Virus record (IMG/VR): IMGVR_UViG_3300009285_000018
Coordinates: 1 to 45,887 of that record
Strand: one strand, 5' to 3'
Length of the DNA: 45,887 nt
Source of the DNA: a virus
The notes beneath the pieces were generated by a model, which saw only the letters and a program-made list of their open reading frames with translations, did not search any database and was not told where the DNA came from. Shown here piece after piece: positions 1-44,236 of the stretch (its first letter is position 1; each line of letters opens with the position of its first letter). The position numbers and the translations under genes were made by a program.

Positions 1-77
1 ACGGAAATGGAAGGCCTTATAGAAGTTTCCTACTATTCCAACAAAATCTATCGCCGCATAATCATTGATTCGGATTC
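1..77. repeat. 77-bp terminal direct repeat, identical to 45811..45887. Either a circular-assembly overlap or a terminal redundancy.
   Basis: The first 77 nt (acggaaatggaaggcc...gattcggattc) recur exactly as the last 77 nt. The unique unit is 45,810 bp. Confidence 0.95.
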
Positions 78-183
78 GTGGCATGAAGCCGAAAACTATA
101 GGGATTTTGCATCCGAACTTGTCGCGTACCATGACGAAGCGCGAAAACTTGAACGCAAATTGCCTAAAATACGAACATGGTAA
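1..183 (+). CDS. C-terminal part of a hypothetical protein whose ORF wraps the contig junction. It starts at 45661 and is about 110 aa in the circular genome.
   Basis: Frame 1 is open from position 1 to the TAA at 181..183. It is in frame with the ATG at 45661 once 45811 is equated with position 1. Confidence 0.55.
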   Translation, partial: TEMEGLIEVSYYSNKIYRRIIIDSDSWHEAENYRDFASELVAYHDEARKLERKLPKIRTW

Positions 184-350
184 AACTCACACTCAAAAAC
201 AACTGGCTTTCATTGGTCGTTGAAAACCTTGAACTTCTCAAAGACGCTTTCGCGGACGGAGCGATACCAACCATGCTTTATGACGGGGATGAAGAAGAAA
301 AAATCGTGGAACTCCAAAATCTTATTGACTACCTAAATAAAACCAACTGA
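177..350 (+). CDS. hypothetical small protein (57 aa, below the ORF-track cutoff)
   Basis: Translated by hand as MVKLTLKNNWLSLVVENLELLKDAFADGAIPTMLYDGDEEEKIVELQNLIDYLNKTN. It shows an ATGGTAA start/stop overlap with the upstream ORF and is followed 1 nt later by the next ATG. Confidence 0.45.
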   Translation: MVKLTLKNNWLSLVVENLELLKDAFADGAIPTMLYDGDEEEKIVELQNLIDYLNKTN

Positions 351-351
351 C

Positions 352-909
352 ATGAAACTCTACGCTACAATTCAATCCGAGCGTGCTATGAAAGGACAGG
401 GGGGAAACGAATACCTCAATATCGTTGTAAAAAACGAATTTCAAGAGGACATTCTAATTCTCACCATTCATCCCGCCCGTAAAGACGGTAGGATACATGG
501 CTACCTCGCCGTGTTAGGAGTAGAAATTCACTCCGATACCACTCAAGGACTGACAACGATACTCCCCACAACTCAACTTGACGCGCCAAAACTACGCAAA
601 CGCCTCATCCACGATCCCCGAACTTGCGAGAACTCCATTCCTTGCTACGACTGCGAAATCACAGAGAAAAGCGCGCCGCCAAAACGCGCCTGCTCAATAT
701 GCGGTGATCCCCTATACGGAGAAGTCCAAGTCCACCACCACAACGAGGATTGCAAAAAATGCGGTTATACCATAATTGCTTCACAACAACATAACTGCAA
801 ATCAATAAAAGGCAAAAAGGAAAAAAGCAAAGAGTGCGGAAATTGCGGACGCCCCGCAACCCAATCTATCGCCAACATAAACAGGTGCGATAGATGTGCC
901 ACACTCTAA
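352..909 (+). CDS. cysteine-rich protein with several CxxC zinc-ribbon-like pairs
   Basis: 185-aa ORF. CxxC pairs are CYDC, CSICG, CKKCG, CGNCG and CDRC. A hairpin terminator follows. Confidence 0.6.
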   Translation: MKLYATIQSERAMKGQGGNEYLNIVVKNEFQEDILILTIHPARKDGRIHGYLAVLGVEIHSDTTQGLTTILPTTQLDAPKLRKRLIHDPRTCENSIPCYDCEITEKSAPPKRACSICGDPLYGEVQVHHHNEDCKKCGYTIIASQQHNCKSIKGKKEKSKECGNCGRPATQSIANINRCDRCATL

Positions 910-927
910 ACGCTAAAAACCAAAAAG

Positions 928-962
928 CCGCGCATTTAACAGCTTGCTATGCGCGGATTTTT
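928..962 (+). terminator. rho-independent terminator
   Basis: Perfect 8-bp stem CCGCGCAT (928..935) / ATGCGCGG (949..956), a 13-nt loop, then ATTTTTG. Confidence 0.7.
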
Positions 963-1149
963 GTTACTTAAAACCTGCATAGTTTCATAACACACCCGTA
1001 TAGATATTGTCAATCCCTCGCGCTTTCGCCAGCGCGCCGGACATGCAAGCGCATCCATCTCTAAATTTCCTAAAATCCCAAAAAAGGCTTCCGACAAAAC
1101 AGAACACCAAGCCACATTTTTTTAACCCAAAATTCCCAAAAGTCAATAA

Positions 1150-1260
1150 CCCCCCCCTTACCCCCCTACCTGTATATATGTATATATATATACTTATATT
1201 AAAAAAAAAATATTATTAACAATAAAGACACATAGGGGGGTAAAGCCAAGGTGGGGGGGG
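1150..1260. repeat. Imperfect inverted repeat around an AT-only core: C8-TTA-C6-TA ... TA-G6-TAA-(9 nt)-G8
   Basis: C8 at 1150..1157 and TTACCCCCCTA at 1158..1168, against TAGGGGGGTAA at 1233..1243 and G8 at 1253..1260. The intervening ~64 nt are almost purely A/T (tgtatatatgtatatatatatacttatattaaaaaaaaaatattattaac...). Confidence 0.8.
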
Positions 1261-1350
1261 ATAAACAAAAAAATGGCTTATATATGCGAGGGGAGATTGA
1301 CAAATAAAATAAAATGGGGTGAAAAAAACAAAAAAATACTATCAGTCAAA

Positions 1351-1394
1351 TGTGGATAACTGTGCTTGACAAACAATTCCTAACAGAATATGTT
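1351..1394 (+). promoter_or_regulatory. DnaA-box 9-mer followed by a sigma70-like promoter
   Basis: TGTGGATAA (1351..1359), N6, TTGACA (1366..1371), N17, TATGTT (1389..1394). The next ATG is at 1416. Confidence 0.55.
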
Positions 1395-1415
1395 TGTTAC
1401 ATACACTCTACTGAC

Positions 1416-1868
1416 ATGATAAAACCATTTAAATTCTTCCCTTCGAAGGGGGACGAAAATCAAATAGAATATCTTTACTTAAAAACCGGATGCTCGGATC
1501 CGCATAATTTGGTTAGGCTTCTTTTGGGTCAGGCGTTCACAAACTGGAAAGAACTTGACTTAAAACACCGCGTGAAAAGTTCGGACCGGCTTCAAGCGCG
1601 CGAAGAAAGAATCCAATGGATCCGTAACAGTTCCAATAAAGAATTCACCGCTTGGCTCAAAGAAATCGAATATCTGCCTCCGGACGAACTACAATTCAAC
1701 ACTTCCGCCCAACATGGTAAATACTACTTTTACGACACCGACGCTCAAGGCAAAAGACACTATGTCTGCGAAATCCGGCATGTCGAAACCGGAAAAACCT
1801 CAATGTTCGATAAAATCGAAGACATTGACGCCACCATACGCAAACTTATCAAGAAAAAACTCATATGA
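1416..1868 (+). CDS. hypothetical protein
   Basis: The ORF track gives 1350..1868. I moved the start to the internal ATG (MIKPFKFF...) because the first 66 nt contain the predicted promoter. Confidence 0.55.
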   Translation: MIKPFKFFPSKGDENQIEYLYLKTGCSDPHNLVRLLLGQAFTNWKELDLKHRVKSSDRLQAREERIQWIRNSSNKEFTAWLKEIEYLPPDELQFNTSAQHGKYYFYDTDAQGKRHYVCEIRHVETGKTSMFDKIEDIDATIRKLIKKKLI

Positions 1869-2179
1869 ATAAAAAACTATCCAAAAATCCCATTCCGGCC
1901 ATAAGTGAAATAACACGCTCTGCCGGCGTTCAGGGATTTGTATTCGGCTTCCGGCCGGATGAGCAATCCGTAACCATCCACTTTGAGAATATCTCCATGA
2001 AAGCCGCGTTCTCAATAGTCATAGCCGCGTTCCAGCAATGTATTGCGCTGGAGCTTAAAAACAATCCTCAATATGATTCCCGACAACGCGGAGTTTTTGA
2101 AGATTTATTGCGGGATTTTCGGAATATCGTGGCCACGGCGAACGCCAAGACCGAAACTGTAAATAAAAAGGTCACATAG
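1865..2179 (+). CDS. hypothetical protein
   Basis: 104-aa ORF with an ATGA start/stop overlap with the upstream ORF. Confidence 0.55.
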   Translation: MNKKLSKNPIPAISEITRSAGVQGFVFGFRPDEQSVTIHFENISMKAAFSIVIAAFQQCIALELKNNPQYDSRQRGVFEDLLRDFRNIVATANAKTETVNKKVT

Positions 2180-2228
2180 ATTCTTTAGAATGGAATTAAA
2201 TAAAAGATTTTAACCCCTCAATAAAACT

Positions 2229-2399
2229 ATGAAAAAAGAAAAGATAACTGAAAAAGAAAATATCATCGTCCCCGTAGAATGGCTAAGTGAATTAGTTAGA
2301 CACTCCGAAATTGCCGAAAAAGATAAAAATCACATAATACACTTGATTGGTTTTATTTCATCTGTGAAAACAATTTTGAAATACGGGATTAAAAGATAA
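2229..2399 (+). CDS. hypothetical small protein (56 aa, below the ORF-track cutoff)
   Basis: Translated by hand as MKKEKITEKENIIVPVEWLSELVRHSEIAEKDKNHIIHLIGFISSVKTILKYGIKR. Preceded by motif copy 1. Confidence 0.5.
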   Translation: MKKEKITEKENIIVPVEWLSELVRHSEIAEKDKNHIIHLIGFISSVKTILKYGIKR

Positions 2400-2418
2400 C
2401 TAACCCCTCAATAAAAAT

Positions 2419-2607
2419 ATGGATATGGATAAAGACGGAAAATTAAGCATACAGAATCGTTGGACATTCAGAATTATGAATGAATTTGATTTTAACTTGG
2501 AATCATTGGCAGATGAGATTATTGATTTACGGCAACAGTTAGAAGTCAAAGATAAAGAGATTACAGAAAGAGATAAGGAAGTTGATAGATTAAATGAATT
2601 ACTTTAA
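2419..2607 (+). CDS. hypothetical small protein, coiled-coil-like
   Basis: 62-aa ORF preceded by motif copy 2. Its stop codon lies inside motif copy 3. Confidence 0.55.
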   Translation: MDMDKDGKLSIQNRWTFRIMNEFDFNLESLADEIIDLRQQLEVKDKEITERDKEVDRLNELL

Positions 2608-2622
2608 CCCCTCAATAAAAAT

Positions 2623-2961
2623 ATGAAAAAAGAAACACTTAAAAAAATAGGAACTTGGCTTGTTAGAGGCGACACAGGACAATCTTCTTTGTCTTTGTGC
2701 GCTGTATATCTTGGGACGGACGAAAAATCACTGAATTATCCTTACGATTGGGGTGATTTTAATAGATGCGTGGGTTTTCTTAATCTTTTGACAAGGGAGG
2801 AAGAAAAGTTTGTTTTAAGAAAAGCGGCACTACAAAATGAAAACTGGAAGAAGATATATTCTGAATGGGCTGACTTAATGATTCTATATCAAGAAAAAAA
2901 CGGCTTAGGTCTTGGAGAAAAATTAAATGTAATCAATTTTAACCCCTCAATAAAAATATGA
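2623..2961 (+). CDS. hypothetical protein
   Basis: 112-aa ORF preceded by motif copy 3. Its C-terminus, NFNPSIKI, is encoded by motif copy 4. Confidence 0.6.
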   Translation: MKKETLKKIGTWLVRGDTGQSSLSLCAVYLGTDEKSLNYPYDWGDFNRCVGFLNLLTREEEKFVLRKAALQNENWKKIYSEWADLMILYQEKNGLGLGEKLNVINFNPSIKI

Positions 2962-3182
2962 AGAAAATAAAATTATTGGTTGATCATGGTGAAGCTAAAA
3001 TCGGAGATGTTTTTATTCAAGGCCTATTTGAATCTCCTCGTTATTATAAATTTACCTCCAGAGAAAACTGGTATTGGAAAGAAGGTTCAAAAATAGAAGA
3101 TAATAGTTTTTTGCCGGCAAGTTGTTTTACCGAAGAATTACAAGATAATTTTGAGATTTTAACCCTTTACCCCCCTCAATAA
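2958..3182 (+). CDS. hypothetical protein
   Basis: 74-aa ORF with an ATGA overlap with the upstream ORF. Its C-terminus is encoded by motif copy 5. Confidence 0.55.
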   Translation: MKKIKLLVDHGEAKIGDVFIQGLFESPRYYKFTSRENWYWKEGSKIEDNSFLPASCFTEELQDNFEILTLYPPQ

Positions 3183-3186
3183 AAAC

Positions 3187-3453
3187 ATGAAAAAAGAAAA
3201 CTACAATTCTATTAAAGGTGTGGTTTCTCTGCTTTGGGTATTGGGTTGGCTACTTGCTATCTTCTTTTTTACAAATCAGCAATTCGTTGTATTTGAAATC
3301 AATAAAAAGTACGAAAAACAATATCCCTGTTTTACATCAGTTGATAAAACAAAATGGTGCGGTGGTGGTTCAAAGGCGATAGAGAATCTACTTGATAAAC
3401 TTAATAGGGGTGAGTGGGCTGTAGATTTTATTCCTATCCTAACTCCCCAATAA
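3187..3453 (+). CDS. hypothetical membrane protein
   Basis: 88-aa ORF with a hydrophobic N-terminal segment, VVSLLWVLGWLLAIFFF. Preceded by motif copy 5. Confidence 0.55.
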   Translation: MKKENYNSIKGVVSLLWVLGWLLAIFFFTNQQFVVFEINKKYEKQYPCFTSVDKTKWCGGGSKAIENLLDKLNRGEWAVDFIPILTPQ

Positions 3454-3457
3454 AAAC

Positions 3458-3631
3458 ATGAAACATGAACCCGAAAAATGGGATTTTAACTGGAGATATA
3501 AGCCACAATGTTGGAAATGCGGCAAAAAAAACAGTTTGAAAGAGTCCGTTTGCGGCCAATGTGGGGAGAAGATCGACGAGAAAGAAGAAGCCAAAGAACG
3601 ATTTAAAAATCCGCGTAAACATTTTTTATGA
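3458..3631 (+). CDS. small zinc-ribbon protein (57 aa, below the ORF-track cutoff)
   Basis: Translated by hand as MKHEPEKWDFNWRYKPQCWKCGKKNSLKESVCGQCGEKIDEKEEAKERFKNPRKHFL, with CxxC...CxxC. Preceded by motif copy 6. Confidence 0.5.
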   Translation: MKHEPEKWDFNWRYKPQCWKCGKKNSLKESVCGQCGEKIDEKEEAKERFKNPRKHFL

Positions 3632-3762
3632 AAACATTTTTGGTTTGGCTTTGGGAAAAAATTCTTCTCCTTATCGTCGTCGCCGCTGGCGTCTATTATT
3701 GGTGGTGGATATTCTCAGACGCATTGTTTTGTTCCGGATGGCTGTGCGATACCGGATTCTAA
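3628..3762 (+). CDS. small hydrophobic protein (44 aa)
   Basis: Translated by hand as MKTFLVWLWEKILLLIVVAAGVYYWWWIFSDALFCSGWLCDTGF. ATGA overlap with the upstream ORF. Confidence 0.4.
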   Translation: MKTFLVWLWEKILLLIVVAAGVYYWWWIFSDALFCSGWLCDTGF

Positions 3763-3767
3763 ATTTT

Positions 3768-4496
3768 ATGAAAATCGAATCTTACTTTCCAGAATATGTT
3801 TTGGCCGCGTTCTCGGAACGATCCGACGGTTCTTGCGCTTCCACCGATCCCGGGGCAGCGGATAACCGCAGGATTTTTCTTTCGGGTCACGGGGTTTCGG
3901 AACGGCAAGTCGCGGTCTCGACGCTTGTCCACTCGGCAATTGTGGAGCCGGTTGGAATTGAGGATATTGGCAATACGCGCGTATGCGACGCGCTGATAAC
4001 CGCCGATTCCGAAGTTTTCCTTTCCGTTACCGCCGCCGACTGCCCTTCCCTCTACTTATTTGACCCCGTGGCGCGCGTTTTGGCGCTTGCGCACTGCGGA
4101 TGGCGTGGAATAGTATCAAACATCGTCCATAACGTAATAAAAGCCATGGTGCAAGGATTTGGCGTAAAATCAGCCAATATACAAGCGTTCATCTCGCCAT
4201 CTATACGTAGTTGTCATTTTGAAATCAAAAAAGACGTGTATGAAAAACTCGCCCCATTCCTTTTTCCATTTGACAATAACGCGACACGCGACTTTATTCC
4301 GGGTCATCGCAATACGCTTGATCTGACGCACGCTATTGTTATGCAATTAATTTCTAACGGTCTTCCTCCGTCCGCTCGTAACATCCGTTTAAATTACGAA
4401 TGTACATTCTGCCAATCCGACCGTTTCTTTTCATGGCGCCGGGACAAAACTCCGGAACGCATGCTGGCTGTTTTTGGCATGCGGAAAACTTATTAA
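3768..4496 (+). CDS. yfiH: YfiH/PgeF family protein (DUF152 / Cu-oxidase_4 fold; purine nucleoside phosphorylase or peptidoglycan-editing family)
   Basis: Family hallmarks are present in order: LVHSAIV, CDALIT, TAADCPSLYLF, LAHCGWRG, LDLTHAI, CTFCQSDRFFSWRRD. I used the internal ATG (MKIESYF) rather than the track start at 3561, because the upstream part overlaps two better small ORFs. Confidence 0.8.
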   Translation: MKIESYFPEYVLAAFSERSDGSCASTDPGAADNRRIFLSGHGVSERQVAVSTLVHSAIVEPVGIEDIGNTRVCDALITADSEVFLSVTAADCPSLYLFDPVARVLALAHCGWRGIVSNIVHNVIKAMVQGFGVKSANIQAFISPSIRSCHFEIKKDVYEKLAPFLFPFDNNATRDFIPGHRNTLDLTHAIVMQLISNGLPPSARNIRLNYECTFCQSDRFFSWRRDKTPERMLAVFGMRKTY

Positions 4497-4525
4497 AATA
4501 ATAAACAAAAAGATGAGAAATAACC

Positions 4526-4708
4526 ATGCCAGCCCGCGCATATAAAATGCTTTTACGCAGTCCCGGCGCGCGCAAACACCGCGAGCATCGTTCGCGCCGG
4601 GGGCGGCGTTATCGGCACGATCATCCTTTGATACTTAATTGGAAAGTGCAACAAGCCGAAGAAGAGGAAAAGAAGTTTCGCGGAAAATTGGACGAAATGG
4701 TACAATAA
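4526..4708 (+). CDS. small arginine-rich basic protein
   Basis: 60-aa ORF containing REHRSRRGRRYRH. Confidence 0.4.
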   Translation: MPARAYKMLLRSPGARKHREHRSRRGRRYRHDHPLILNWKVQQAEEEEKKFRGKLDEMVQ

Positions 4709-4749
4709 AAGAAAGGTCAAGTCAACTGATAAAAAGATGAGGAGGCAGT

Positions 4750-4926
4750 ATGACTATGACGGTCGCAATCGAAGCAATTACGCGCTACATATTCATCTGT
4801 GATGAGTGTGGAGAGCAAAATGAGCTCGGGGAAGACGAGCGTACGGCTGGTTTTGCCCGATGTACCTTCTGCGACAGCGGATTCAATCTTGAAGGATCCG
4901 CCGATAACAGCGATTCTATGCTATAA
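4750..4926 (+). CDS. small zinc-ribbon protein (58 aa)
   Basis: Translated by hand as MTMTVAIEAITRYIFICDECGEQNELGEDERTAGFARCTFCDSGFNLEGSADNSDSML. It is one of the few genes here with a clear GGAGG Shine-Dalgarno (4741..4745). It is preferred over the overlapping track ORF 4799..4981. Confidence 0.55.
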   Translation: MTMTVAIEAITRYIFICDECGEQNELGEDERTAGFARCTFCDSGFNLEGSADNSDSML

Positions 4927-5053
4927 TATCCTCATAGCGCTTTTTGGTTTTTCCGGTGGGGACAATATGCTTGTGGTTTAAAATGGGATTTCTACCATTC
5001 CACGCTACGTCCCCGCCGGAGAAAATCGTAATAAATTTTCTCCAAAAAGCCCT

Positions 5054-5521
5054 ATGACATTAAAACATTTCGTTTGGGCCGCAATTATTGCGCTGGCGAT
5101 TTTCGGCGCGTATGCGACTCTTCGTTCTTTAGGATATGAACTTGACAAAAAAGAGAAAAATAATCGATATTTTCCCACCAAAGAGGTCCGAAAAGACATG
5201 CTCGATCTTTGGTTGGATCGTTTGGCGGATTTTGAGTGCCAAAATTGTCCAGACAATTTCCGGCATTTGGATAAAAATAATCTCTACTCCTACGGCTGCC
5301 TCCAGTTTCAAAAAAATACCTTTTACGCGGAAGTCCGCAGATATAAACTTCTACCTTTTACGGAAGACGCGGAATTGATGAACTGGATTTACGACTGCCA
5401 ATTTCAGAAATCGCTCGCTCGATACATGATTCAGGCTGGTGGTTTCGCGTCTGCGCGCTCCCACTGGTATACTTCGGTTGTGCTGCGTGGACTTGGATAT
5501 CCACCCGTTCCGGAAAATTGA
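5054..5521 (+). CDS. membrane-anchored protein, possibly lysozyme-like or transglycosylase-like
   Basis: N-terminal TM segment FVWAAIIALAIFGAY. An E...S-YGCLQF segment loosely resembles the SLT-type ES...GLMQ motif. The domain assignment is weak. Confidence 0.35.
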   Translation: MTLKHFVWAAIIALAIFGAYATLRSLGYELDKKEKNNRYFPTKEVRKDMLDLWLDRLADFECQNCPDNFRHLDKNNLYSYGCLQFQKNTFYAEVRRYKLLPFTEDAELMNWIYDCQFQKSLARYMIQAGGFASARSHWYTSVVLRGLGYPPVPEN

Positions 5522-5550
5522 CAATATAGTCAAATAGCTGAAACGCCCTT

Positions 5551-6165
5551 ATGTATATAAACATAAAAGATGAAACTCTTTGCATCACTTTCCCGTATGC
5601 AAAGTCGGTAATTGACGCGCTCCGTACTATTCCGGGTCGCGTTTTTAATCCAAAATTAAAACGATGGGAAGTGCCGGTTGAGAACGGCATTGAATGTTTG
5701 CGCGTTTTGGAGCCGCTTGGTTTCAATGTGCATTTGGACGTAAAAAGACGGGTGGAAGCGCTAAAAAAAGAAATTGAGGAATCTGAAGAACTTAAAATAA
5801 ATCCATCTGTTCCATATTCCGGATCTTTGCCGCTTTACGATTTCCAAAAAATCGGAGCGGCTTTTTTGAAAGCGCGTTCAGCCTCTCTTCTTGCCGACGT
5901 TCCCGGTCTCGGGAAAACAATTCAAACGATTGCGGCGCTGGAAGAAATCTCGGGAATAAAATTGGTGGTATGTCCGGCTTCTTTAAAATTTAGTTGGCAA
6001 AATGAAATAAACAAGTGGAAATCGAACGAAATAATTTTTGTGGTTGATGGTTCAAAAGAAGAACGCATTGAAATTTATAAAAACGCGAAAAGTTGCGGAA
6101 ATGGATACTTAATAATAAATTATGAGCTTCTTTTGCACGATTTTGACATACTTGTTGACTTTTGA
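5551..6165 (+). CDS. SNF2-family helicase, N-terminal fragment (motifs I and Ia)
   Basis: Contains LYDFQ, DVPGLGKTIQTIA and VVCPASL..W. It ends at TGA 6163..6165 just before the point where motif II is expected. Confidence 0.85.
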   Translation: MYINIKDETLCITFPYAKSVIDALRTIPGRVFNPKLKRWEVPVENGIECLRVLEPLGFNVHLDVKRRVEALKKEIEESEELKINPSVPYSGSLPLYDFQKIGAAFLKARSASLLADVPGLGKTIQTIAALEEISGIKLVVCPASLKFSWQNEINKWKSNEIIFVVDGSKEERIEIYKNAKSCGNGYLIINYELLLHDFDILVDF

Positions 6166-6598
6166 TATGCTTGTAGTGTGGCAAAAGCTGGAAGAAAAAA
6201 AGGATCAATCCCGTGGAATAAGGGTTTAAAAGGAATATACCATATTTGGCCCAATGGTCGTCCTCCTATTAGCGAAGAAACACGCAAGAAAATTGGACTC
6301 TCGGGAATTGGGCGAACTCCATGGAATAAGGGGAAGCCTTATTTTGAGATCCGTGGAGACAGAAATCCTAACTGGAAAGGCGGAATTACTGGAGAGGACC
6401 AAACCTTGAGAAGTAGAATTGAATTCAAGAATTGGAGCAAAACAGTATTTAAAATAAACGATAAGAAGTGTGCGAAATGCGGATCTAAAAAGGATTTAGT
6501 TGCGCATCATAAAAAAAGTTTCAAGAAATATGTTTCTTTACGCTATGATTCTTCAAATGGAATTATCGTATGTCGTAAATGTCACATAAAAATTCATC
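6166..6598 (+). mobile_element. Homing-endonuclease insertion that splits the SNF2 helicase gene
   Basis: About 430 nt separate helicase motif Ia/Ib from motif II and consist almost entirely of the HNH ORF. The two flanking helicase reading frames differ by +1. Confidence 0.7.
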
Positions 6599-6642
6599 AT
6601 GTTTGCGGCCATAATAAGCGACGAAAGTACAAGGATTTCTAA
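6178..6642 (+). CDS. HNH homing endonuclease with NUMOD3-like repeats
   Basis: Repeats GSIPWNKG and GRTPWNKG, plus SEETRKKIGLSGIG. HNH core is CAKCGS...LVAHH...NGIIVCRKCHIKIHH. GTG start. It is in frame with the upstream fragment across a single TGA. Confidence 0.85.
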   Translation: MAKAGRKKGSIPWNKGLKGIYHIWPNGRPPISEETRKKIGLSGIGRTPWNKGKPYFEIRGDRNPNWKGGITGEDQTLRSRIEFKNWSKTVFKINDKKCAKCGSKKDLVAHHKKSFKKYVSLRYDSSNGIIVCRKCHIKIHHVCGHNKRRKYKDF

Positions 6643-7627
6643 TCCGTCGGCCAAAACCACTAAATTTTTAAAACAACTTCAAACCAAGAAAAAAATTGCC
6701 CTTACCGGCACGCCAATTTCCAATTCTCCAAATGATCTCTATTCCATCATCGACTGGCTGTCCCCGCGCTTTTTAGGAACTTACTACCAATTTTTGTCGC
6801 GTTATTGTATTACCGACGCGCGCTATCCATCCATGATTCTTGGCTACCAAAATCTTAGTGAACTCAAATGGCGCGTGTCGCGTTTTATTCTCCGACGATC
6901 CAAAGAAGAAGTCTTTACCGACTTTCCGTCAAAAACCATCAGTAATATTGTGTTTGATTTGAGCGAAGAGGAACGCGAACTATACGATAACATCCGGAAT
7001 TTGATTTGGGAGGAACTTGAGGCGCTCACCATAACCAAACAAAGTTTGGCGACTATTCCGGTGAAAATGCTTCGACTTAAACAAGCCACCGATCACCCGG
7101 CGCTGATTTCGGACTTGAAAAAATCCTCCAAAATGGAGACGTTGCAGGAACTTTTGAAAGGCATAGTGGAAAGCGGAGAGAAAGTGATTATTTTTTCCCA
7201 ATTCGCAGAAATGGCCAAAAAGATTTTTGACGAAACTTCGGCCTCGCTCATAATTCATGGCGAAGTTCCATCGGAGAAGCGCCAGCAAATTGTCAACCTT
7301 TTTAATACCGAACCATTTTATCGTGTATTGATAATGACCGAAGCTGGCGCGTACGGCTTAAATTTGCAGGCCGCATCTTACGTAATTCATTACGATTCTC
7401 CATGGTCCGTTGCTAAACTTATGCAACGTGAGGACCGTGCGCACCGTATAGGCCAAACTAAGTCCGTCACTGTTTATAACTTAATTGCGCGAAAAACCAT
7501 TGACGAATACGTGCTGAAAAAATTGCACAAAAAACAAAAACTCGCGGTGGAGCTTTTGCAAGATGTCGAGCGCTTGGAAGCGCAGGGAATTGATGAGGAA
7601 GATATCAAATCAATCCTCCGGATTTAG
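6599..7627 (+). CDS. SNF2-family helicase, C-terminal fragment (motifs II-VI)
   Basis: Contains IISDEST (motif II), LTGTPISNSPNDLYS (motif III) and QREDRAHRIGQTKSVTVYNL (motif VI). This frame opens at 6590, directly after a TAA. Confidence 0.85.
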   Translation: MFAAIISDESTRISNPSAKTTKFLKQLQTKKKIALTGTPISNSPNDLYSIIDWLSPRFLGTYYQFLSRYCITDARYPSMILGYQNLSELKWRVSRFILRRSKEEVFTDFPSKTISNIVFDLSEEERELYDNIRNLIWEELEALTITKQSLATIPVKMLRLKQATDHPALISDLKKSSKMETLQELLKGIVESGEKVIIFSQFAEMAKKIFDETSASLIIHGEVPSEKRQQIVNLFNTEPFYRVLIMTEAGAYGLNLQAASYVIHYDSPWSVAKLMQREDRAHRIGQTKSVTVYNLIARKTIDEYVLKKLHKKQKLAVELLQDVERLEAQGIDEEDIKSILRI

Positions 7628-11641: not shown

Positions 11642-12706
11642 ATGAAAATTCTAATTACGGGAATTTGTGGATTCATTCCACATCATCTTACGGAACATAT
11701 TATAAAGAATACTGATTGGGAAATAATTGGATTAGATAATTTAACATATGCCTCGAGGGGCTTTGATAGATTGAGAGATATTAAGGTTTACAACGACAAA
11801 AGGGTAAAAATTTTTACCCACGATATTACTCGTCCAATTTCTGAAGAGTTATTAAGAGAAATAGGAGAAGTTGATTATATCTTACATTTAGCAGCAAATA
11901 CCCACGTGGATAACTCCATAATTGACCCTGAGCCCTTTGTAATGACAAATGTGGTTGGAACTATGCATATGCTCGATTTCGCGCGTAAGCAGCTAAATTT
12001 GAAGCATTTTCTCTACTTCTCCACGGACGAGATATTCGGGCCGGCTCCAGTGGAAGTAGCGTATAAAGAGTGGGATCGGTATAACTCCGGCAATCCTTAT
12101 TCTGCGTCAAAGGCTGGCGGAGAGGAGCTTTGTTTGGCATATGCCAATACTTATCATATCCCGATACTCATAACTCACACTATGAATGTTTTTGGAGAAC
12201 GCCAACATCCGGAAAAATTCATACCAAAAGTAATTCGTGCGGCTCTGGACAGCCACATTATTCCAATTCATTCCGATAAAACCAAAACCGTTGCTGGATC
12301 CCGTATGTGGATTCACGCGCGGAATGTGGCAGCTGCGATTCTGCATCTTTTGGAATATACCTCGCACGATTCCAGTATTGTAGTCCCGCGTCCGACCTAT
12401 TGGCGTCCGGAATATGCGGATAAGTTCAATATTGTTGGAGAACGGGAAGTGGATAATCTTGCAATGGCGAAATTGATACATAAGATAGTGATGGAAACGG
12501 TCAAAGAACAACGAACTTTTAAATACGAAATGGTTGATTTCCATTCGAGCCGCCCCGGGCACGATTTGCGTTATGCGCTTGATGGTTCAAAAATGAAAGC
12601 CATGGGGTGGTCGTTACCCATGGGATTTGAAGATTCGTTAAGAAAGACGGTTGAGTGGACCGTCCAAAATCCAAAATGGCTAAATATAATTTCTCAATCC
12701 AAGTAG
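11642..12706 (+). CDS. rmlB: NAD-dependent sugar epimerase/dehydratase, dTDP-glucose 4,6-dehydratase-like
   Basis: Contains ILITGICGFIP (GxxGxxG), STDEIFG and YSASKAGGE (YxxxK). Length is 354 aa. Confidence 0.75.
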   Translation: MKILITGICGFIPHHLTEHIIKNTDWEIIGLDNLTYASRGFDRLRDIKVYNDKRVKIFTHDITRPISEELLREIGEVDYILHLAANTHVDNSIIDPEPFVMTNVVGTMHMLDFARKQLNLKHFLYFSTDEIFGPAPVEVAYKEWDRYNSGNPYSASKAGGEELCLAYANTYHIPILITHTMNVFGERQHPEKFIPKVIRAALDSHIIPIHSDKTKTVAGSRMWIHARNVAAAILHLLEYTSHDSSIVVPRPTYWRPEYADKFNIVGEREVDNLAMAKLIHKIVMETVKEQRTFKYEMVDFHSSRPGHDLRYALDGSKMKAMGWSLPMGFEDSLRKTVEWTVQNPKWLNIISQSK

Positions 12707-16781: not shown

Positions 16782-17228
16782 TTAAGTAACGTGTTTCCAC
16801 GCAACATTATGTAAAATTCTCCAAACATTTGCTTGAGAAACTCCGAATAATTTAGCAATTTCGTATTGAGAATAATTTTCCTTACGATATAGATTTTTTA
16901 TTGTAAAGATATCTTTGTTTTTTAATTTTGCAAGTTTATGGTTTTCGCCCGGAAATGAGTGCCAGCGGCGCTTTTTGACACAGTCCAAAACGTTATCCTG
17001 TTGAGTACCTATAAAAAGGTGTTTTGGATTTACACATTTTCTATTATCGCATTTGTGGAGAACGCACATTCCTTCGGGAATTTTTCCAAAATGAAGCATC
17101 CAAGAAACTCTATGAGCATAATGAGGTTTTTTGGGAAAACGAAAGTAACCATATCCATGACCAGCATTTGCTCCTGTCCAATTCCAACAATTTTTTGTTT
17201 TTTTAATTTTGTTAAAAAAGTTTATCAT
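16782..17228 (-). CDS. free-standing HNH endonuclease (HNH_3-like) with a C-terminal HTH
   Basis: Contains CWNWTG...GYGYF...AHRVSW...CVLHKCDNRKCVNPKHLFIGTQQDN, and the C-terminal segment YEIAKLFGVSQANVWRIL. Confidence 0.8.
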   Translation of the reverse strand: MINFFNKIKKTKNCWNWTGANAGHGYGYFRFPKKPHYAHRVSWMLHFGKIPEGMCVLHKCDNRKCVNPKHLFIGTQQDNVLDCVKKRRWHSFPGENHKLAKLKNKDIFTIKNLYRKENYSQYEIAKLFGVSQANVWRILHNVAWKHVT

Positions 17229-22987: not shown

Positions 22988-23744
22988 TCTCGTCAATATG
23001 CTTTACGAATATATTTGTGTCTATAAGAAAAGGATACTTCATTTTTTGGTATTTCGTCCAGCCGGCCTTCTCAAAAAATTTATCCTTTATAACCCGGTCG
23101 CACCATGCCAAATCCGAAGTTCCGGAGACCAAATGGAAGCTGCCGGTTTCGGGATCAAGCCATTTTTTTTCCGGCATCTCAAACACCCGGCGCGTGCGTT
23201 CCCCTCCAACCATATATTCCGAACTTTCTTCCCACATGGCTTTTAAAATAGAGCAGTGGATCAAAAGGCATCCGGTCGGCGCGCCATCAACCCACACCAA
23301 GTCCCCCATTTTCCAGTCCTGATAAAATGATTTTCCCCGACCACGATACACCAAAGGCTCGGGTGGATTTGATTTTGTAAAATAAAGTCCGGATACTACC
23401 GGCACCTTGCCGTCGCGCATATATTTGTTCAGGCGTACGAATGCGTCCGGTGGCAATAGATTGTCCGATTCAACCAAAAGCAGCCATTCCATTTCTTTTT
23501 CTATGGCGGCCCGCACAATCAAATTCTGCGCGTCAGCCACAAGATAACGGAGCGGCGCAAAGGTGGAAATCCATTGAATCATGTCAGTTGCGGACCAGTT
23601 GGTCGGAATAATTTGTCCGTAGCGCGCCATCACCCATTCCATACGTACTGTGCCGGTCGAAGGCGTGCCAATCAAAAGCCGGTTGGTCCATGGACCCTTA
23701 TTTTCAAGGATCAGATTGTTTTCCATTTTGAGAAGTTTACTCAT
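22941..23744 (-). CDS. GT-A fold glycosyltransferase (family 2-like)
   Basis: Contains LLLVESDNLLPPDAF (a DxD-like motif), VVSGLYF and PTGCLLIHCSIL. Confidence 0.55.
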   Translation of the reverse strand: MSKLLKMENNLILENKGPWTNRLLIGTPSTGTVRMEWVMARYGQIIPTNWSATDMIQWISTFAPLRYLVADAQNLIVRAAIEKEMEWLLLVESDNLLPPDAFVRLNKYMRDGKVPVVSGLYFTKSNPPEPLVYRGRGKSFYQDWKMGDLVWVDGAPTGCLLIHCSILKAMWEESSEYMVGGERTRRVFEMPEKKWLDPETGSFHLVSGTSDLAWCDRVIKDKFFEKAGWTKYQKMKYPFLIDTNIFVKHIDENGRQFPLQDPKTLGF

Positions 23745-24261
23745 AATATGATGAATCTTCTTTACGCTTCTCTAAAACAACTTCCATGTTTCCGTTTAAA
23801 TGCCATGTGTTGACAAGAATTTTCCATGGTTTCGGTTTATAAATTTTGTAAAGTCCCTGTCCCAAAGGATCAAAATAATCCCACGTGGATTCGTTACACG
23901 GATTGCAGTGCGTGGGATCTTGAAAATATCCATGGGAGCCGGCGTAGGGCGTAGAAATCATGAATTTACCCCCATATTTGAGTACGCGCCACACCTCATC
24001 CATAAAGCGCAAAAACACCCCGCCATGCGGGTTTATATGCTCAACAAGGTGCGATGCTATGGCTAAATAAGCGCAACGGTCAGGAAGAGGCCAAGGGAAG
24101 CGTTCTACATCGTGCGCAACATCCACCCCGGGAAGTTTACGGTTATCAAGACCAACAAAATCAGGCTGCTTATTGGCGCCGCATCCAATATCTAATTTTA
24201 TCCCTTGATCGTGTTTCCGCAATAAAGCGGCAATCAAAGGACTCATCTTTTCTTTACTCAT
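23737..24261 (-). CDS. class I SAM-dependent methyltransferase
   Basis: Contains motif I LDIGCG, and LKYGGKFMISTP. There is no DPPY/NPPY motif, so it is not an obvious DNA N6-methyltransferase. Confidence 0.7.
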   Translation of the reverse strand: MSKEKMSPLIAALLRKHDQGIKLDIGCGANKQPDFVGLDNRKLPGVDVAHDVERFPWPLPDRCAYLAIASHLVEHINPHGGVFLRFMDEVWRVLKYGGKFMISTPYAGSHGYFQDPTHCNPCNESTWDYFDPLGQGLYKIYKPKPWKILVNTWHLNGNMEVVLEKRKEDSSYYE

Positions 24262-24265
24262 CTTT

Positions 24266-24757
24266 TTAAGAAAATTGGATTTGATATGTCACGTTGACAT
24301 TCTGATTGGTCGCACAGGAACTGGAAGTATAAGTGTTACCGGAAAAAAGCGTGGCATTGGTTGAAGTCGTATTAAAAAGTCCGACATTGGAAAGATTCAC
24401 CGATGCGGTAACGAAAGAATCGGAACTTGCGAAAGCCGCGGTAAATTGAAGTGTTTTAGAAGACGTAATTGAGGTTGATCCGGTTTTGCGTTGCGTGGAT
24501 GACATTATTTCGCCAGCCAATCCGGTTTCAGCGGCTAAGGGCGCGCCACCCGTTCCAAGCGCGATATGAGTAATAGTTTTGGCTCCCGATGCGCCAGCAA
24601 GACCCTTGCAAAGATAATCTTGAAATCCAAGATTTACAACTAAATTTTTTACCCAGCCGGAATCTCCCGCAATTTTTTCCATACTTTTTACGTTCGGCTC
24701 GGAGATTTGAAGCCGGAAAAATCCGTGAACTTTGATCGTGTCTTTATTTTTTGTCAT
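24266..24757 (-). CDS. hypothetical Ser/Thr-rich protein
   Basis: The internal ATG (MTKNKDTIKVHG) was chosen. The C-terminal half is rich in S, T and N (NTTSTNATLFSGNTYTSSS). Confidence 0.45.
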   Translation of the reverse strand: MTKNKDTIKVHGFFRLQISEPNVKSMEKIAGDSGWVKNLVVNLGFQDYLCKGLAGASGAKTITHIALGTGGAPLAAETGLAGEIMSSTQRKTGSTSITSSKTLQFTAAFASSDSFVTASVNLSNVGLFNTTSTNATLFSGNTYTSSSCATNQNVNVTYQIQFS

Positions 24758-24758
24758 A

Positions 24759-25037
24759 CTATTCAAGTACCAGATATGCAACATTAGCGGTCCCAAGAAC
24801 CTTAACGTGCATACCTTTAGTAAATTTATGATCTACGTGATAGATTTCCGACCTTTTGGGGGCGGCGCTTGGCACCACGGCATAAAAAACAACATCGCCG
24901 GATGCGTTTCCATCACGAATTTTTACGGTAGCGTTAGCCGCCGAGGGCGTAATCAGTACGCCTTTAAGGCGAACCTGTTGAGTTGTAGGAATGGTTTGCT
25001 TTCCAACCGTTCCTGAGATTGCAACTTCGAGTAACAT
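24759..25037 (-). CDS. hypothetical small protein, beta-rich
   Basis: 92-aa ORF with its own TGATATAAT promoter. Confidence 0.45.
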   Translation of the reverse strand: MLLEVAISGTVGKQTIPTTQQVRLKGVLITPSAANATVKIRDGNASGDVVFYAVVPSAAPKRSEIYHVDHKFTKGMHVKVLGTANVAYLVLE

Positions 25038-25055
25038 AGTAATTGTATTATATCA
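25038..25055 (-). promoter_or_regulatory. extended -10 promoter, TGATATAAT
   Basis: Read on the minus strand: TGATATAAT (25055..25047), N9, ATG (25037). It shares the 12-mer CGTGATATAATA with the promoter at 20069..20080. Confidence 0.5.
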
Positions 25056-26148
25056 CGGTTCTTTTTACTCGCGCAAGGGCTGTCCTTGCGAGAATTTGAG
25101 AATACACTTCAAAGATTTTTTGAGCATTGTCTTGAATCCAGTGTTTTGAAATCCATTCTTTATTGTGTCGCGCCATCTCCCTCCGTTTGTTCGGATGATC
25201 CACAAGTTCTATAAGCATATTATACCACTCTTCATAAGTATTCGCCAAAAGCGCATGAACCCCGTTATCCACAGCCTCCTTGTAGGGTATCACGTTTGAC
25301 GCCACAATCGGTATCTGAGCCGCCGCGTATTCCTTGATTTTAAGGTCTGATTTACAGTTCCCGAATGAATTATTGATAACCGGCGCCACCGCTATATCCC
25401 ATCCTTTGGAACAAAGCACTTGTGGATAAATTTCAATCGGTTCTCCGGGATCATTCCGCAACTCACCCTCGAATCCACAGGCCGGACAAACTTGATTTAG
25501 TACATTCAAATTAAATACTCCTCCAAGTTCCTGATGCGTCATCCCCATTGTTTCAAACCGGATATTCGGTTTGCGCTCTTTCACAATTCGCTCGATGACT
25601 TTTGAAATCATCTTTAAGTCGTCCGCATGCGCATTGCCACCCATCCAACCAATTCTAATTTTTCCATCGGCTGGCTTGATTATCGGATTGTCCCATAAAT
25701 CTTTATTTAGATAGTTCGGCACAACGTAAATGAACGGATTGTATGGAAAATATTCACGGGCGAGTTGCGGAGTGGAAACCGTGACGCCGGCCGCGACTTT
25801 CGTCATCTCCATCGCGCGATGCACATAAAGCGTTCCCGGATTCCACGCCGGAAATCCCCAAACATTTCGTGGAGATACATGATGCACAAAATCATCAATT
25901 TCAGTAATGAAAGGAATTTTATGGAATAAAAGTTTGTGTAATATTTTTGTGGCATTTTCGCTTCCCATCTCCTGCATCACCACAAGATCCGCGGCATTTA
26001 ACTGGTCATCAGTCGGCATTTGCATAACAATTTCGGTTTCAGCAAGACCCATACGTTTAATAAAAGTTGCTGGTTGCTTACAGCGGAAGTAGCCACATCC
26101 GCCGTCATCTCGAACTACATATAAAATTTTAGGAATTTTATTCGTCAT
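25048..26148 (-). CDS. GT-B fold glycosyltransferase (family 1/4-like)
   Basis: C-terminal IPIVASNVIPYKEAVDNGVHALL resembles the GT4 E-x7-E region. Length is 366 aa. Confidence 0.6.
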   Translation of the reverse strand: MTNKIPKILYVVRDDGGCGYFRCKQPATFIKRMGLAETEIVMQMPTDDQLNAADLVVMQEMGSENATKILHKLLFHKIPFITEIDDFVHHVSPRNVWGFPAWNPGTLYVHRAMEMTKVAAGVTVSTPQLAREYFPYNPFIYVVPNYLNKDLWDNPIIKPADGKIRIGWMGGNAHADDLKMISKVIERIVKERKPNIRFETMGMTHQELGGVFNLNVLNQVCPACGFEGELRNDPGEPIEIYPQVLCSKGWDIAVAPVINNSFGNCKSDLKIKEYAAAQIPIVASNVIPYKEAVDNGVHALLANTYEEWYNMLIELVDHPNKRREMARHNKEWISKHWIQDNAQKIFEVYSQILARTALARVKRTVI

Positions 26149-26603
26149 TTTATGGCTTCGATTACAAGTTCGTAGGGATTTTTTTCAAACTCATTTGGCA
26201 CGCTGTCAAACCAAATAATTTGTTTCTCACCGGCAAATCCCGCGGCCGAAAGATAACGGATCAAACTATCGCGTGTCATATATATCGCGTGTGTAAATTC
26301 CCGGTTGAATGAATCGATGTCTATTCCTCCACCCACGAACTCACGGCATAAAACTTCAAAATCGTCCACCTTAATCCACAATTTTCCTCCCGGCTTCAAA
26401 CATCGATACCAATTCACAAGAACCTCGCCCACTTCTTCGAGGAAATAACGGTCAAGCACATGGAACGAATAAATCGCATCAATGCTGTTTTCCCGAAAAC
26501 CAAGTTTTTTTAAATCATATAAAATATCAACCTCCGGACCGGGTTGGTTCCAGACCGTAGTGACGTTCGGAACTATTCGAGTTGGGCTAAGTTGAATTTT
26601 CAT
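26145..26603 (-). CDS. SAM-dependent methyltransferase-like protein (Methyltransf_11-type)
   Basis: Contains LKPGGKLWIKVDD and a short class I fold. Motif I is not obvious. Confidence 0.45.
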   Translation of the reverse strand: MKIQLSPTRIVPNVTTVWNQPGPEVDILYDLKKLGFRENSIDAIYSFHVLDRYFLEEVGEVLVNWYRCLKPGGKLWIKVDDFEVLCREFVGGGIDIDSFNREFTHAIYMTRDSLIRYLSAAGFAGEKQIIWFDSVPNEFEKNPYELVIEAIK

Positions 26604-27370
26604 AATTGACCGTAGGGTTGTGATTCCAAACTAAATCCGCGACCCCTGTCTTTCCATAAAACAAGTTTATTTCCGAAATCCGAGAGGTACTCTTTATGGA
26701 TCGCCTTTCCCTTCCTTTGACGCCACTTATCGGCATATTTGGGCCAATATTTAATATAGTAATCACAGGTTTTTTCCCACGCTTCAATACTGAATCCTTT
26801 TCCGAAATGTTTGATATCTCCATGCACCGGAATCTGTATTCCGGGTTCAAGCGTAACTTCACGCTGATCCGGAAGATGGTATTTCAAATATGGCGAGTTC
26901 CGGAAAAAGAATACTATCGTACGGAATTCGGGACCAAACCATTGCCGCTCTTTATATGATTTTTCAGAATCTTCGGGTGTAATATGCGCATCATACAAAC
27001 GGCAAGCAATCGCCTTAATGTTCGGGTCCAAAAACAGTCCGTATTCAGTGAAATTATAAATATGCTCGTCGGCGTCAAAATATACGAACCAATCATCCGG
27101 CCCGGCAAACTGTTGCGCCCGAGCGAGTACCATTTGCCGGTTGAACCAATCGGATTTTTCTCTGTCCGGATCCCAAAACGAACCCTCAATTACTTCCTTT
27201 ACTGCTGGATGGGATCGCGCAATTTCCACCGTTCGATCCGTGGATACGTCATCATAAACATAGATTCCTTCGGTACAAAAAGATTTCCAATTATCCAGCG
27301 TATCTTTTAGGATCGCTTCTTCGTTACGGACCTTGGTAAGTCCCCTGATTTTAGGAAGTTCATGAAACAT
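26600..27370 (-). CDS. family 2 glycosyltransferase
   Basis: Contains VRNEEAIL, YVYDDVSTDRTVEIA (compare the DDGSTD motif) and FDADE. Confidence 0.65.
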   Translation of the reverse strand: MFHELPKIRGLTKVRNEEAILKDTLDNWKSFCTEGIYVYDDVSTDRTVEIARSHPAVKEVIEGSFWDPDREKSDWFNRQMVLARAQQFAGPDDWFVYFDADEHIYNFTEYGLFLDPNIKAIACRLYDAHITPEDSEKSYKERQWFGPEFRTIVFFFRNSPYLKYHLPDQREVTLEPGIQIPVHGDIKHFGKGFSIEAWEKTCDYYIKYWPKYADKWRQRKGKAIHKEYLSDFGNKLVLWKDRGRGFSLESQPYGQL

Positions 27371-40515: not shown

Positions 40516-40569
40516 AGTCAATTATATTATACTACCAAATCCGCTTCTCTGGTATATCGATTATCCTCA
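40516..40569 (-). promoter_or_regulatory. TAGTATAAT promoter of the portal gene, with an 8/9 DnaA-box-like site in inverted orientation
   Basis: Read on the minus strand: TAGTATAAT (40534..40526), N10, ATG (40515). The terL TAG stop is part of the element. TTATCCTCA lies on the plus strand at 40561..40569, 26 nt upstream of the promoter element. Confidence 0.45.
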
Positions 40570-43354: not shown

Positions 43355-43369
43355 GGTTCGACAAAAAAT

Positions 43370-43897: not shown

Positions 43898-43945
43898 GCG
43901 TATATTATACCATAATGCCACCAAAAACATATACCCTGTGCATAA
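43898..43945 (-). promoter_or_regulatory. DnaA-box variant plus extended -10 promoter of the packaging/late operon
   Basis: Read on the minus strand: TTATGCACA (43945..43937), N24, TGGTATAAT (43912..43904), N6, ATG (43897). Confidence 0.55.
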
Positions 43946-44236
43946 ACCACTTGCATAGATTGATTTTTTTTGCTAAAATTTATGCAGAAAAAGGTCTTTA
44001 AAAATAAATTTTTGACCGAGGGCAAATCCTCTATACTTCTTGACTTACAAAATAAGTGGTAGCACTACCACTAAACGTAAAATGAAAACTACATTAAAAA
44101 AAACTAAAAATAAATAATGAAACTGATTTATAGCGGGGGGCGCGGGCGGGGCGCACGGAAAAAACAGGACATTAAAAAAACACACCGGCGGGCGGGTTTT
44201 TTTGTTACAATAAAAAAAGAATAAGTCAATAGCAAC

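Follow-up and report, generated by a model that had tools for sequence, protein, structure and literature searches.

In T4-type phages, the promoter-early stem-loop (PeSL) is an element of about 100 bp that joins a strong sigma70 promoter to a terminator stem-loop (Arbiol et al. 2010, PMC2839356; Comeau et al. 2014, PMC4122927). Cluster K mycobacteriophages carry the Start-Associated Sequence (SAS), a 13-bp consensus (5'-GGGATAGGAGCCC) with a Shine-Dalgarno (SD)-like core; it is present in 11–19 copies across half a genome, often with a 17-bp inverted-repeat extension, and a role in translation has been suspected, its function being unproven (Pope et al. 2011, PMC3203893). We compare these elements with a repeat unit in the viral genome IMGVR_UViG_3300009285_000018, the whole of which (45,887 nucleotides) was analysed and is called the window below. 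The unit (consensus TTTTAACCCCTCAATAAAAAy before ATG; no G; about 20–47 nt) is present in six plus-strand copies, each of them at the start of a small open reading frame (ORF) that we refer to as a cassette. Linker or boundary sequences are also said to have been recognised in the modular evolution of lambdoid phages, by Susskind and Botstein in 1978 and by Clark et al. in 2001. We consider it probable that the unit is a portable translational junction (a stop for the incoming ORF, followed by a start or restart that does without SD), which doubles as a homology patch for cassette exchange. It would then be best described as belonging with the conserved linkers that mediate modular shuffling, in this case by way of translation in an SD-less system: the concept of shuffling has precedents, and the functional half of our claim rests on sequence.

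The core of the unit, AACCCCTCAATAAAA, is exact at 2212, 2402, 2606 and 2941 and is found with two mismatches at 3170 and 3441, always on the plus strand. With up to three mismatches allowed, the window contains 12 matches versus 2.7 ± 1.6 expected, a count that was reached by 0 of 100 shuffles; a repeat finder returned a 32-nt unit six times (75–100% identity) and an extended 47-nt unit four times. The copies are confined to 2208–3463, and the ATG of a small ORF begins 1–2 nt after the end of every one of them. These coordinates and statistics bear out a first-pass annotation of the window, which had described six units, each joined to the start of an ORF of 56–112 aa; the identical continuation that it had seen in three copies is ATGAAAAAAGAAA, which follows the units directly at 2229, 2623 and 3187. 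Unit 1 (2208..2241; TTTTAACCCCTCAATAAAACT-ATG-AAAAAAGAAA) heads ORF1 (2229..2399, plus strand, 56 aa), and no upstream ORF terminates inside it. Unit 2 (2397..2421; TAACTAACCCCTCAATAAAAAT-ATG) contains the stop codon of ORF1 and heads ORF2 (2419..2607, plus strand, 62 aa), which itself ends at a TAA at position -18 of unit 3 (2603..2635; TTTAACCCCTCAATAAAAAT-ATG-AAAAAAGAAA), positions being counted from the next ATG. ORF3 (2623..2961, plus strand, 112 aa), headed by unit 3, runs right through unit 4 (2937..2969; TTTTAACCCCTCAATAAAAAT-ATGA), where it reads NFNPSIKI*, to a TGA that overlaps the start of ORF4 (2958..3182, plus strand, 74 aa). The two remaining copies are degenerate: ORF4 ends at a TAA at -7 in unit 5 (3157..3199; TTTTAACCCTTTACCCCCCTCAATAAAAAC-ATG-AAAAAAGAAA), which heads ORF5 (3187..3453, plus strand, 88 aa), and ORF5 ends at the equivalent TAA (…ILTPQ*) in unit 6 (3439..3463; CTAACTCCCCAATAAAAAC-ATG), which heads ORF6 (3458..3631, plus strand, 57 aa).

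The first-pass annotation had also raised the possibility of a recombination boundary that shuffles small cassettes, and had proposed a comparison of related contigs. We ran this comparison on about 25 related metagenomic contigs, which represent several otherwise unrelated backbones and are cited here by L-numbers; relatives were obtained through exact-motif scans (L010, L012, L022, L028 and L140–142) and exact-protein look-ups (about 25 more). The contigs do vary in their cassette content, with breakpoints at the unit. An instructive case is scaffold L029/L042 (45,089 nt), which is 100% identical to window positions 42229–45887 and 99.96% identical to positions 1–2421, and which is without 2422–2625 (plus strand): these 204 nt comprise ORF2 and one unit, that is, exactly one ATG-to-ATG period. 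The unit that L029/L042 retains is chimeric, with its left flank from unit 2 and its right flank from unit 3, which places the crossover in the 20 bases (AACCCCTCAATAAAAATATG) that 2402–2421 and 2606–2625 have in common. The same ORF2-less junction is found in 11 further contigs from several samples, such that ORF2 is missing from all 12 otherwise near-identical contigs. This presence/absence polymorphism mirrors the case of ORF192 in phages RB49 and phi1, in which, as is characteristic of PeSLs, close relatives differ by one gene without known relatives (ORFan) and a single chimeric repeat is left behind.

Cassettes are also shared between phages that otherwise have nothing in common. ORF4, ORF5 and ORF6 recur at 96%, 97% and 82% nucleotide identity, respectively, in the phage that is represented by L010, L012 and L022 (about 38% GC; the ORF6 value is for L010). 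Beyond these cassettes, no similarity between that phage and the window was seen across about 25 kb, with tblastx included; its ORF4 and ORF5 are separated by a 151-aa gene, and its ORF5 and ORF6 by four genes. Depending on the contig, the upstream neighbour of ORF4 is ORF3, a 117-aa gene or a methyltransferase-like gene, and its downstream neighbour is ORF5 or the 151-aa gene; L031 combines a left side of the window type with a right side of the L012 type. Homologues of ORF3 in other contigs (63–75% identity) retain the unit on their 3' side, TTTAACCCC..AATA being kept in homologues at ~70% aa identity with indels nearby, and one ORF3 homologue plus unit precedes three different genes depending on the contig. 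Unit-bearing arrays were found in the further contigs L136, L141, L142, L046 and L050. The low-GC contigs L136, L141 and L142 hold homologues of ORF1 and ORF2 in such arrays: that of ORF1 is in L141 (76% nucleotide identity), and those of ORF2 are in L136–139 (76% aa identity) and L142 (79% nucleotide identity). Throughout, the mosaic boundaries are at the junctions: in all informative pairs, homology ends either 6–20 nt before the ATG or 3–21 nt after its A. We also noted one fusion, in L028 (2690–2840), in which the unit is joined at an internal ATG in the middle of an ORF6 homologue, one base out of frame, to give a 21-aa product; this is an imprecise recombination product or a pseudogene, and therefore imprecise events happen as well. 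Chimeric assembly is an unlikely cause of the alternative junctions, because the repeats (20–47 nt) are shorter than the assembly k-mers (as judged from contig names, k141 and k127, and from the 77-nt terminal overlap of the window) and because the junctions recur in independent samples.

Another key observation is that the unit is made up of two halves. The 3' half, AATAAAAAy-ATG-AAAAAAGAAA, is the start context of the genome as a whole, and the 5' half, TTTTAACCCCTC, is peculiar to the array: at positions -20..-11, C accounts for 48% of bases in the array versus 16% in other genes, and the C-run is array-specific in every backbone examined. The earlier remark that the unit is used by no other gene thus stands for the C-rich 5' half and falls for the A-rich 3' half. 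SD-like GGAG/GAGG precedes 3 of the 44 non-array genes versus 2.7 expected, which is the chance level, and on this count SD is not used by the genes of this genome. It had been correctly noted that the units have no SD, which is not a special trait of theirs, since the 44 other genes are at chance level too; the likeness of CCCCTC to an anti-SD has no evident relevance in a genome that uses no SD. In the 44 non-array genes, positions -10 to -2 are rich in A and poor in G, 77% of the genes have a pyrimidine at -1, and A is favoured at +4, +6 and +7. When a start-context weight matrix was trained solely on these 44 genes, the six array starts scored 9.1, 7.5, 9.5, 7.8, 5.4 and 4.3, as compared with 1.7 ± 5.0 (maximum 9.8) for the non-array genes themselves and -5.1 ± 5.1 for all ATG trinucleotides; AATAAAAAy-ATG-AAAAAAGAAA is therefore the genome's own start context in near-ideal form. 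Furthermore, G makes up 1.3% of positions -25..-1 at array starts versus 15% at the others, and the minimum free energy (MFE) of -30..+30 has a mean of -1.5 kcal/mol versus -5.5 ± 3.4 kcal/mol. In SD-less bacteria, A at -3, A at -6 and low structure are reported to promote initiation (PMC6847099), and the array starts match all of these determinants.

The unit also arrests reading in each frame. Its consensus has one stop per frame, namely TAA at -18, TAA at -7 and the TGA of ATGA at +1, and stops in three frames are present within -30..+4 at 6/6 units versus 10/44 other genes. Every one of these positions is used by real ORFs (-18 by ORF2, -7 by ORF4 and ORF5, +1 by ORF3); it had been noted at the outset that upstream ORFs read into the unit in different frames or have their stop codon in it. 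Read as TTA ACC CCT CAA TAA, the unit encodes L-T-P-Q-stop, as at the C-termini of ORF4 and ORF5, and it is for this reason that …LTPQ* C-termini recur. Across 38 junctions in five backbones, the stop-to-ATG spacing is -4 in 13, +4 in eight, exactly +15 in five, another value from +5 to +19 in nine, and above 20 in three (maximum 32). Spacings of -4 to +9, i.e., overlapping or within about 10 nt as for termination-reinitiation, account for 22 of the 38, and 13 further junctions, at +11 to +19, lie in a range of variable efficiency: reinitiation has been described as variable from +11 to +20, with longer gaps requiring independent initiation (PMC10666635). The -4 and +4 classes are thus inside the working range. 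Termination-reinitiation had been one of the roles suggested for the unit; the anatomy (stops in three frames, and spacings that cluster at -4, +4 and +15) is consistent with it, and we infer the restart itself. SD-independent 'Kozak-like' starts and termination-reinitiation gene pairs have been described elsewhere (PMC6847099, PMC6728339, PMC10666635). The unit resembles these in having A at both -3 and -6, little structure, AAA as the second codon, and stops that either overlap the start as ATGA or precede it by a few bases; those are general tendencies of genomes, in contrast to a discrete repeat with a C-run and a stop in every frame.

We found no sigma70-like promoter at any unit on the plus strand, in agreement with the first-pass statement that there is no good sigma70 -10, and no terminator-like site at any unit, the sole plus-strand sites in 1..6000 being those at 1918 and 3675. 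The best -10-like hexamer of the units, AAAAAT, would place the transcription start inside the ORF; on the opposite strand of unit 1, a lone and weak 9/12 match to a sigma70 promoter was rejected. The MFE across the units is 0 to -4 kcal/mol; an exceptional variant in L012 (GAGGGGATAACTAATCCCCC) does form a hairpin. The genome has promoter-like sequences of a canonical type elsewhere: TGnTATAAT is found 6–10 nt before leaderless minus-strand ATGs at 15288, 20062, 25037, 31110 and 43897, whereas it is found at none of the units, and the minus-strand ATG at 9613 has, equally close to it, a TATAAT that lacks the TG extension and is paired with a TTGATA -35. Extended -10 promoters 6–10 nt before start codons imply that leaderless mRNAs are widespread, and L046 likewise carries a leaderless promoter, TTGACA-17-TATTAT-8-ATG. 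The left edge of the array is marked by an element of its own (2167..2200, plus strand; AAAGGTCACATAGATTCTTTAGAATGGAAT), which overlaps the end of a 104-aa gene and is a degraded copy of AAAGGTCGTATAAATTCTTTAGATGAAT, which stands at the head of arrays in L012 and L037. In L012 (9245–9305) and L037 (244–270), this head element reads AAAGGTCGTATAAATTCTTTAGATG, which looks like a TATAAA -10-like box and then a leaderless ATG; a second AAGGTCGTA, about 33 nt upstream of it in L012, could be an operator. A separate head element fits an arrangement in which there is one promoter per array and the units are internal junctions.

Bearing these observations in mind, we can define more closely how the unit relates to the known systems. 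It is like the PeSL in being a short conserved repeat that bounds small ORFans in hypervariable regions and in serving as an exchange linker between otherwise unrelated sequences. Judged by its parts, it is not a PeSL: the defining sigma70 consensus early promoter and stem-loop terminator (GGGG…CCCC) are absent. The unit is also shorter (25–45 nt) and often inside the upstream ORF; PeSL cassettes are insulated transcriptionally, whereas the unit would give a translation stop and start within a polycistronic array. Excised mini-circles, which form during infection, are a further trait of PeSLs. With SAS, the unit has in common that the repeats are asymmetric, all point the same way and lie a few bases ahead of the ATG in non-structural genes that belong to unrelated families, and that the upstream stop codon is sometimes inside the repeat. 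It is not an SAS by the measures of sequence, SD-like core and distribution: the unit is without SD, G-free, clustered in one array and placed at mosaic boundaries, whereas SAS has its SD-like core, is scattered and is not reported as a recombination breakpoint. The lambdoid linkers, similarly short, conserved and placed at gene boundaries, let homologous recombination bring unrelated modules together; those linkers are sporadic and their functional modules span several genes, in contrast to the present unit, which stands at the boundary of every single-gene cassette and appears to have a recognisable expression function.

In our preferred reading, the array would be read as a single polycistronic mRNA, driven from upstream in this phage and from the head promoter in other backbones. 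Each unit would terminate any incoming ORF, in any frame, by its TAA at -18, its TAA at -7 or the TGA of ATGA, and would then present a start site that is rich in A, lacks G and is unstructured (with A at both -3 and -6, a pyrimidine at -1, and AAA AAA as second and third codons), which suits a host without SD pairing; ribosomes would re-initiate after termination at the -4 and +4 spacings, or load afresh at the longer ones. The same 20–45 nt, found wherever two of the genes meet and again in arrays of other, co-occurring phages, would supply homology for exchange, so that homologous or short-homology recombination between units could delete, insert or replace an ORF-plus-unit cassette and keep expression intact. 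In this model, recombination between units accounts both for the mosaicism and for the near-identity of the unit copies, and the repeats would cause the exchanges rather than mark them.

Were this the case, the unit would represent a sequence grammar for the gain, loss and exchange of single ORFan genes between unrelated phages: where there is no SD initiation, one seam of 25–45 nt would both keep an inserted gene expressed and supply the homology for the next exchange. The PeSL idea, which concerns transcriptional cassettes in T4-like coliphages, would thereby come to cover translational junctions as well, in groundwater phages that are uncultivated, and the comparison of contigs would offer a mechanism, open to test, by which ORFans turn over in such phages. 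The unit may also provide a search handle for hypervariable arrays of accessory (possibly counter-defence) genes in metagenomes, and polycistronic constructs for SD-less hosts might use it as a compact junction that works in any frame. It would also explain why assemblies of these phages break at the array locus.

Several points weigh against this reading. At spacings of +15 to +19, reinitiation has already become inefficient in E. coli and Haloferax. The C-run is missing from 15/40 junctions, and polymorphism is 8.0% in the unit versus 6.4% in the ORFs (p = 0.43), which gives no sign of extra constraint on its exact sequence; the ORFs, in the same test, have the third-position bias expected of genuine genes. 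As for the C-run (TAAC4-8TC), it may act as an unpaired spacer, or it may anchor recombination and hold it in register. The core of the unit, TTAACCCCTCAATAAA, matches the T3 RNA polymerase promoter, TTAA-CCCTCACTAAA, in 14/15 positions with one gap, a score that 0.02% of shuffles attain. The comparative data all come from metagenome assemblies. Finally, the position of the boundaries is no proof that the repeat is the substrate of recombination, because genes so tightly packed force viable breaks to fall at junctions.

Among the alternatives, we take first that the unit is a passive scar without function, copied together with cassettes of one low-GC donor lineage and homogenised by recombination, and that the A-rich start context is the only part that matters. 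The array is indeed a low-GC island (2185..3631, plus strand; GC 32–36% versus about 45% elsewhere) that resembles the phages of 33–38% GC with similar arrays, and both the polymorphism of the unit, as high as that of the ORFs, and the junctions devoid of a C-run are what a scar would leave. On the other hand, TTTAACCCC..AATA has been kept beside ORF3 homologues that have themselves diverged to about 70% aa identity, the unit recurs in at least five backbones with constant place and orientation, and the layout of stops in three frames is a coherent design feature. We regard a passive scar as unlikely.

It is doubtful, and somewhat more so, that the C-rich half (TTAAC4-8TC) is a recognition element, either the promoter of a T3-like single-subunit polymerase that a donor phage or a co-infecting one supplies, or a binding site for a new factor in translation or recombination. 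If it were, each ORF plus unit would be an autonomous, self-expressing mobile cassette that circulates among unrelated phages, in this instance phages of uncultivated groundwater hosts, which are possibly members of the candidate phyla radiation (CPR). The broader proposal that every unit is a promoter, with each cassette as its own transcription unit and a near-leaderless mRNA made by a T3/T7-type polymerase or an alternative host sigma, draws on the T3 match, on a long, conserved and asymmetric sequence in single orientation at a fixed place before ATG, and on the frequency of leaderless starts in this genome. T7/T3-type promoters are about 23 bp long, have a fixed spacing to +1 and are dispersed over the genome. 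In contrast, the units are clustered in an imported array, and both C-run length and the distance from C-run to ATG vary (0–12 nt). In the complete genome, neither an RNA polymerase nor a sigma factor was detected with Pfam, PHROGs, PDB sequences or motifs, remote homology being possible (the Pfam and PHROGs scan took in 50 ORFs, including every non-overlapping ORF of at least 90 aa); three uncharacterised proteins of 1288, 660 and 428 aa gave no PDB sequence match, and no DxDGD motif was found. The T3 likeness is in this light an unexplained resemblance, with no polymerase found to read the unit. That the cassettes work in unrelated backbones, that the unit has no sigma70 match, that a separate canonical promoter-like element heads the arrays, and that the exact sequence is without extra constraint all argue further against individual promoters, which we consider improbable. 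The phage-specific promoter or leaderless signal listed among the first-pass possibilities is accordingly not supported: neither a sigma70-like match nor a polymerase or sigma was detected, the C-run is at variable distances from the ATG, and the real promoters are canonical.

T4 RegA and RegB act on targets that share a particular layout, a common single-stranded sequence that overlaps the start codons of unrelated early genes. The unit could be an RNA operator or processing site of this kind, at which a protein co-represses the cassettes in the manner of RegA or a nuclease cuts in the manner of RegB: its shared single-stranded sequence overlaps the start codons of many unrelated early-type genes, it is unstructured and hence accessible, and the C-rich half would gain an explanation that it otherwise lacks. 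Such a role seems to us as improbable as that of a promoter, given that no candidate RNA-binding protein was identified, that the backbones share no protein except the cassettes, and that the C-rich half is variable, absent from 15/40 junctions and under no detectable extra sequence constraint. It is very improbable that the unit is the site of a dedicated site-specific recombinase, comparable to integron attC: a single-gene cassette array with a repeated boundary, from which one cassette was excised precisely, does recall an integron, as do the single orientation and a presumed expression of promoter-less genes from one end, but Pfam and PHROGs reveal no integrase or recombinase gene in or near the array or anywhere in the genome, there is no attC fold or inverted-repeat hairpin (MFE about 0), and crossovers have no fixed point, being spread over about 40 nt with imprecise, out-of-frame events among them.

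Some further properties of the repeat may be recorded here. C-runs in general are not enriched in the genome. A Chi-like or genome-wide role for CCCCTC/GAGGGG was rejected, as there are 12 and 4 copies versus 9 and 5 expected and no enrichment beyond the array; an A AAA AAG frameshift heptamer was also rejected, being in the wrong frame when read from the sequence. On reading the array sequence for long-range pairing of the C-run with G-runs, we saw no consistent partner, and the start regions are almost unstructured. No Rfam family matches the units; a sub-threshold match to sxy, at 1155–1245, is outside the array. Most of the exact 17- to 20-mer matches in other contigs (L001–L009, L011, L013–L021 and L023–L027) are single and unrelated, at chance level, in cellular or other viral DNA, and were set aside. 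Two chance 20-mer matches (L025 1460–1479 and L027 1390–1409) directly precede apparent real starts (MKKLIIATVV… and MKKINATVSN…, respectively), and the same 20-mer may be a workable start context in these cellular contigs. In L046, unit-like sequences are found within ORFs (…TAATCCCCCCAATAAAG… and ATGAAATTAACCCCCCAACAA, at 795–830 and 2271–2300); these are possibly decayed junctions that followed gene fusion.

The six cassette proteins are mutually unrelated except for their MKKE start, which is part of the nucleotide repeat; the array is therefore not made of duplicated genes. Pfam and PHROGs assign no function to most of them. ORF3 belongs to PHROGs 15291 and 1229, and its AlphaFold model has a pLDDT of 52; ORF5 has a hydrophobic segment near its N-terminus, and ORF6 is a zinc-ribbon protein. 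Exact-protein look-ups of ORF2 (with both possible starts) and of ORF5 returned zero matches, as did an IMG/VR query with the adjoining 172-aa protein and a blastn search of window 1300–4600 against the INPHARED phages.

The window is a complete circular (or circularly permuted) phage genome of ~45,810 bp: there is an exact direct overlap of 77 nt (1–77 = 45811–45887), and scaffold L029/L042 spans the end-to-start junction. Identical and near-identical contigs come from groundwater metagenomes (PRJNA292723; 'ANAN16-1' scaffolds). On the minus strand, the genome encodes an SU10-type major capsid protein (29205–30371), an SPP1-type portal (38815–40521) and a large terminase of 940 aa (40532–43354), which is probably interrupted by a LAGLIDADG intein (the domain is at residues 461–515). 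An SNF2-type helicase is divided between two ORFs (5551–6165 and 6599–7627), and the low-GC HNH endonuclease ORF between them (6178–6642) looks like the insertion of a free-standing homing endonuclease; a second HNH gene is at 16782–17228 (minus strand). Pfam and PHROGs also identify an exonuclease, a RusA-like resolvase, a PgeF-like gene, an epimerase, glycosyltransferases and methyltransferases. Among these, the PgeF/Cu-oxidase_4 gene (3768–4496), the nucleotide-sugar epimerase (11642–12706) and a block of methyltransferase and glycosyltransferase genes within the structural region (23737–27370, minus strand) are host-like, and the nearest relatives of the epimerase, at 55–65% identity, are from CPR/Patescibacteria, DPANN and Bdellovibrionales metagenome-assembled genomes.

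The array is embedded in a densely packed, co-directional run of genes from 1350 to 4496, and upstream of this array-bearing operon is a non-coding region of 440 nt (909–1350). This region contains a hairpin with 22-nt arms (914–970), TTTTTTAACCC…AATAACCCCCCCCTTACCCCCCTACC at 1118–1172 together with a (TA)n-rich core, GGGGGGTAAAGCCAAGGTGGGGGGGG at 1235–1260, with its C8 and G8 runs inverted, and three direct repeats of a G-box (1252, 1287 and 1315), one of which includes TTGACA; the region may be an origin or have a regulatory role. There are ten plus-strand TAACCC sites, two of them in this region and five in the array units, and TTACCCCCC is common to the region and unit 5.

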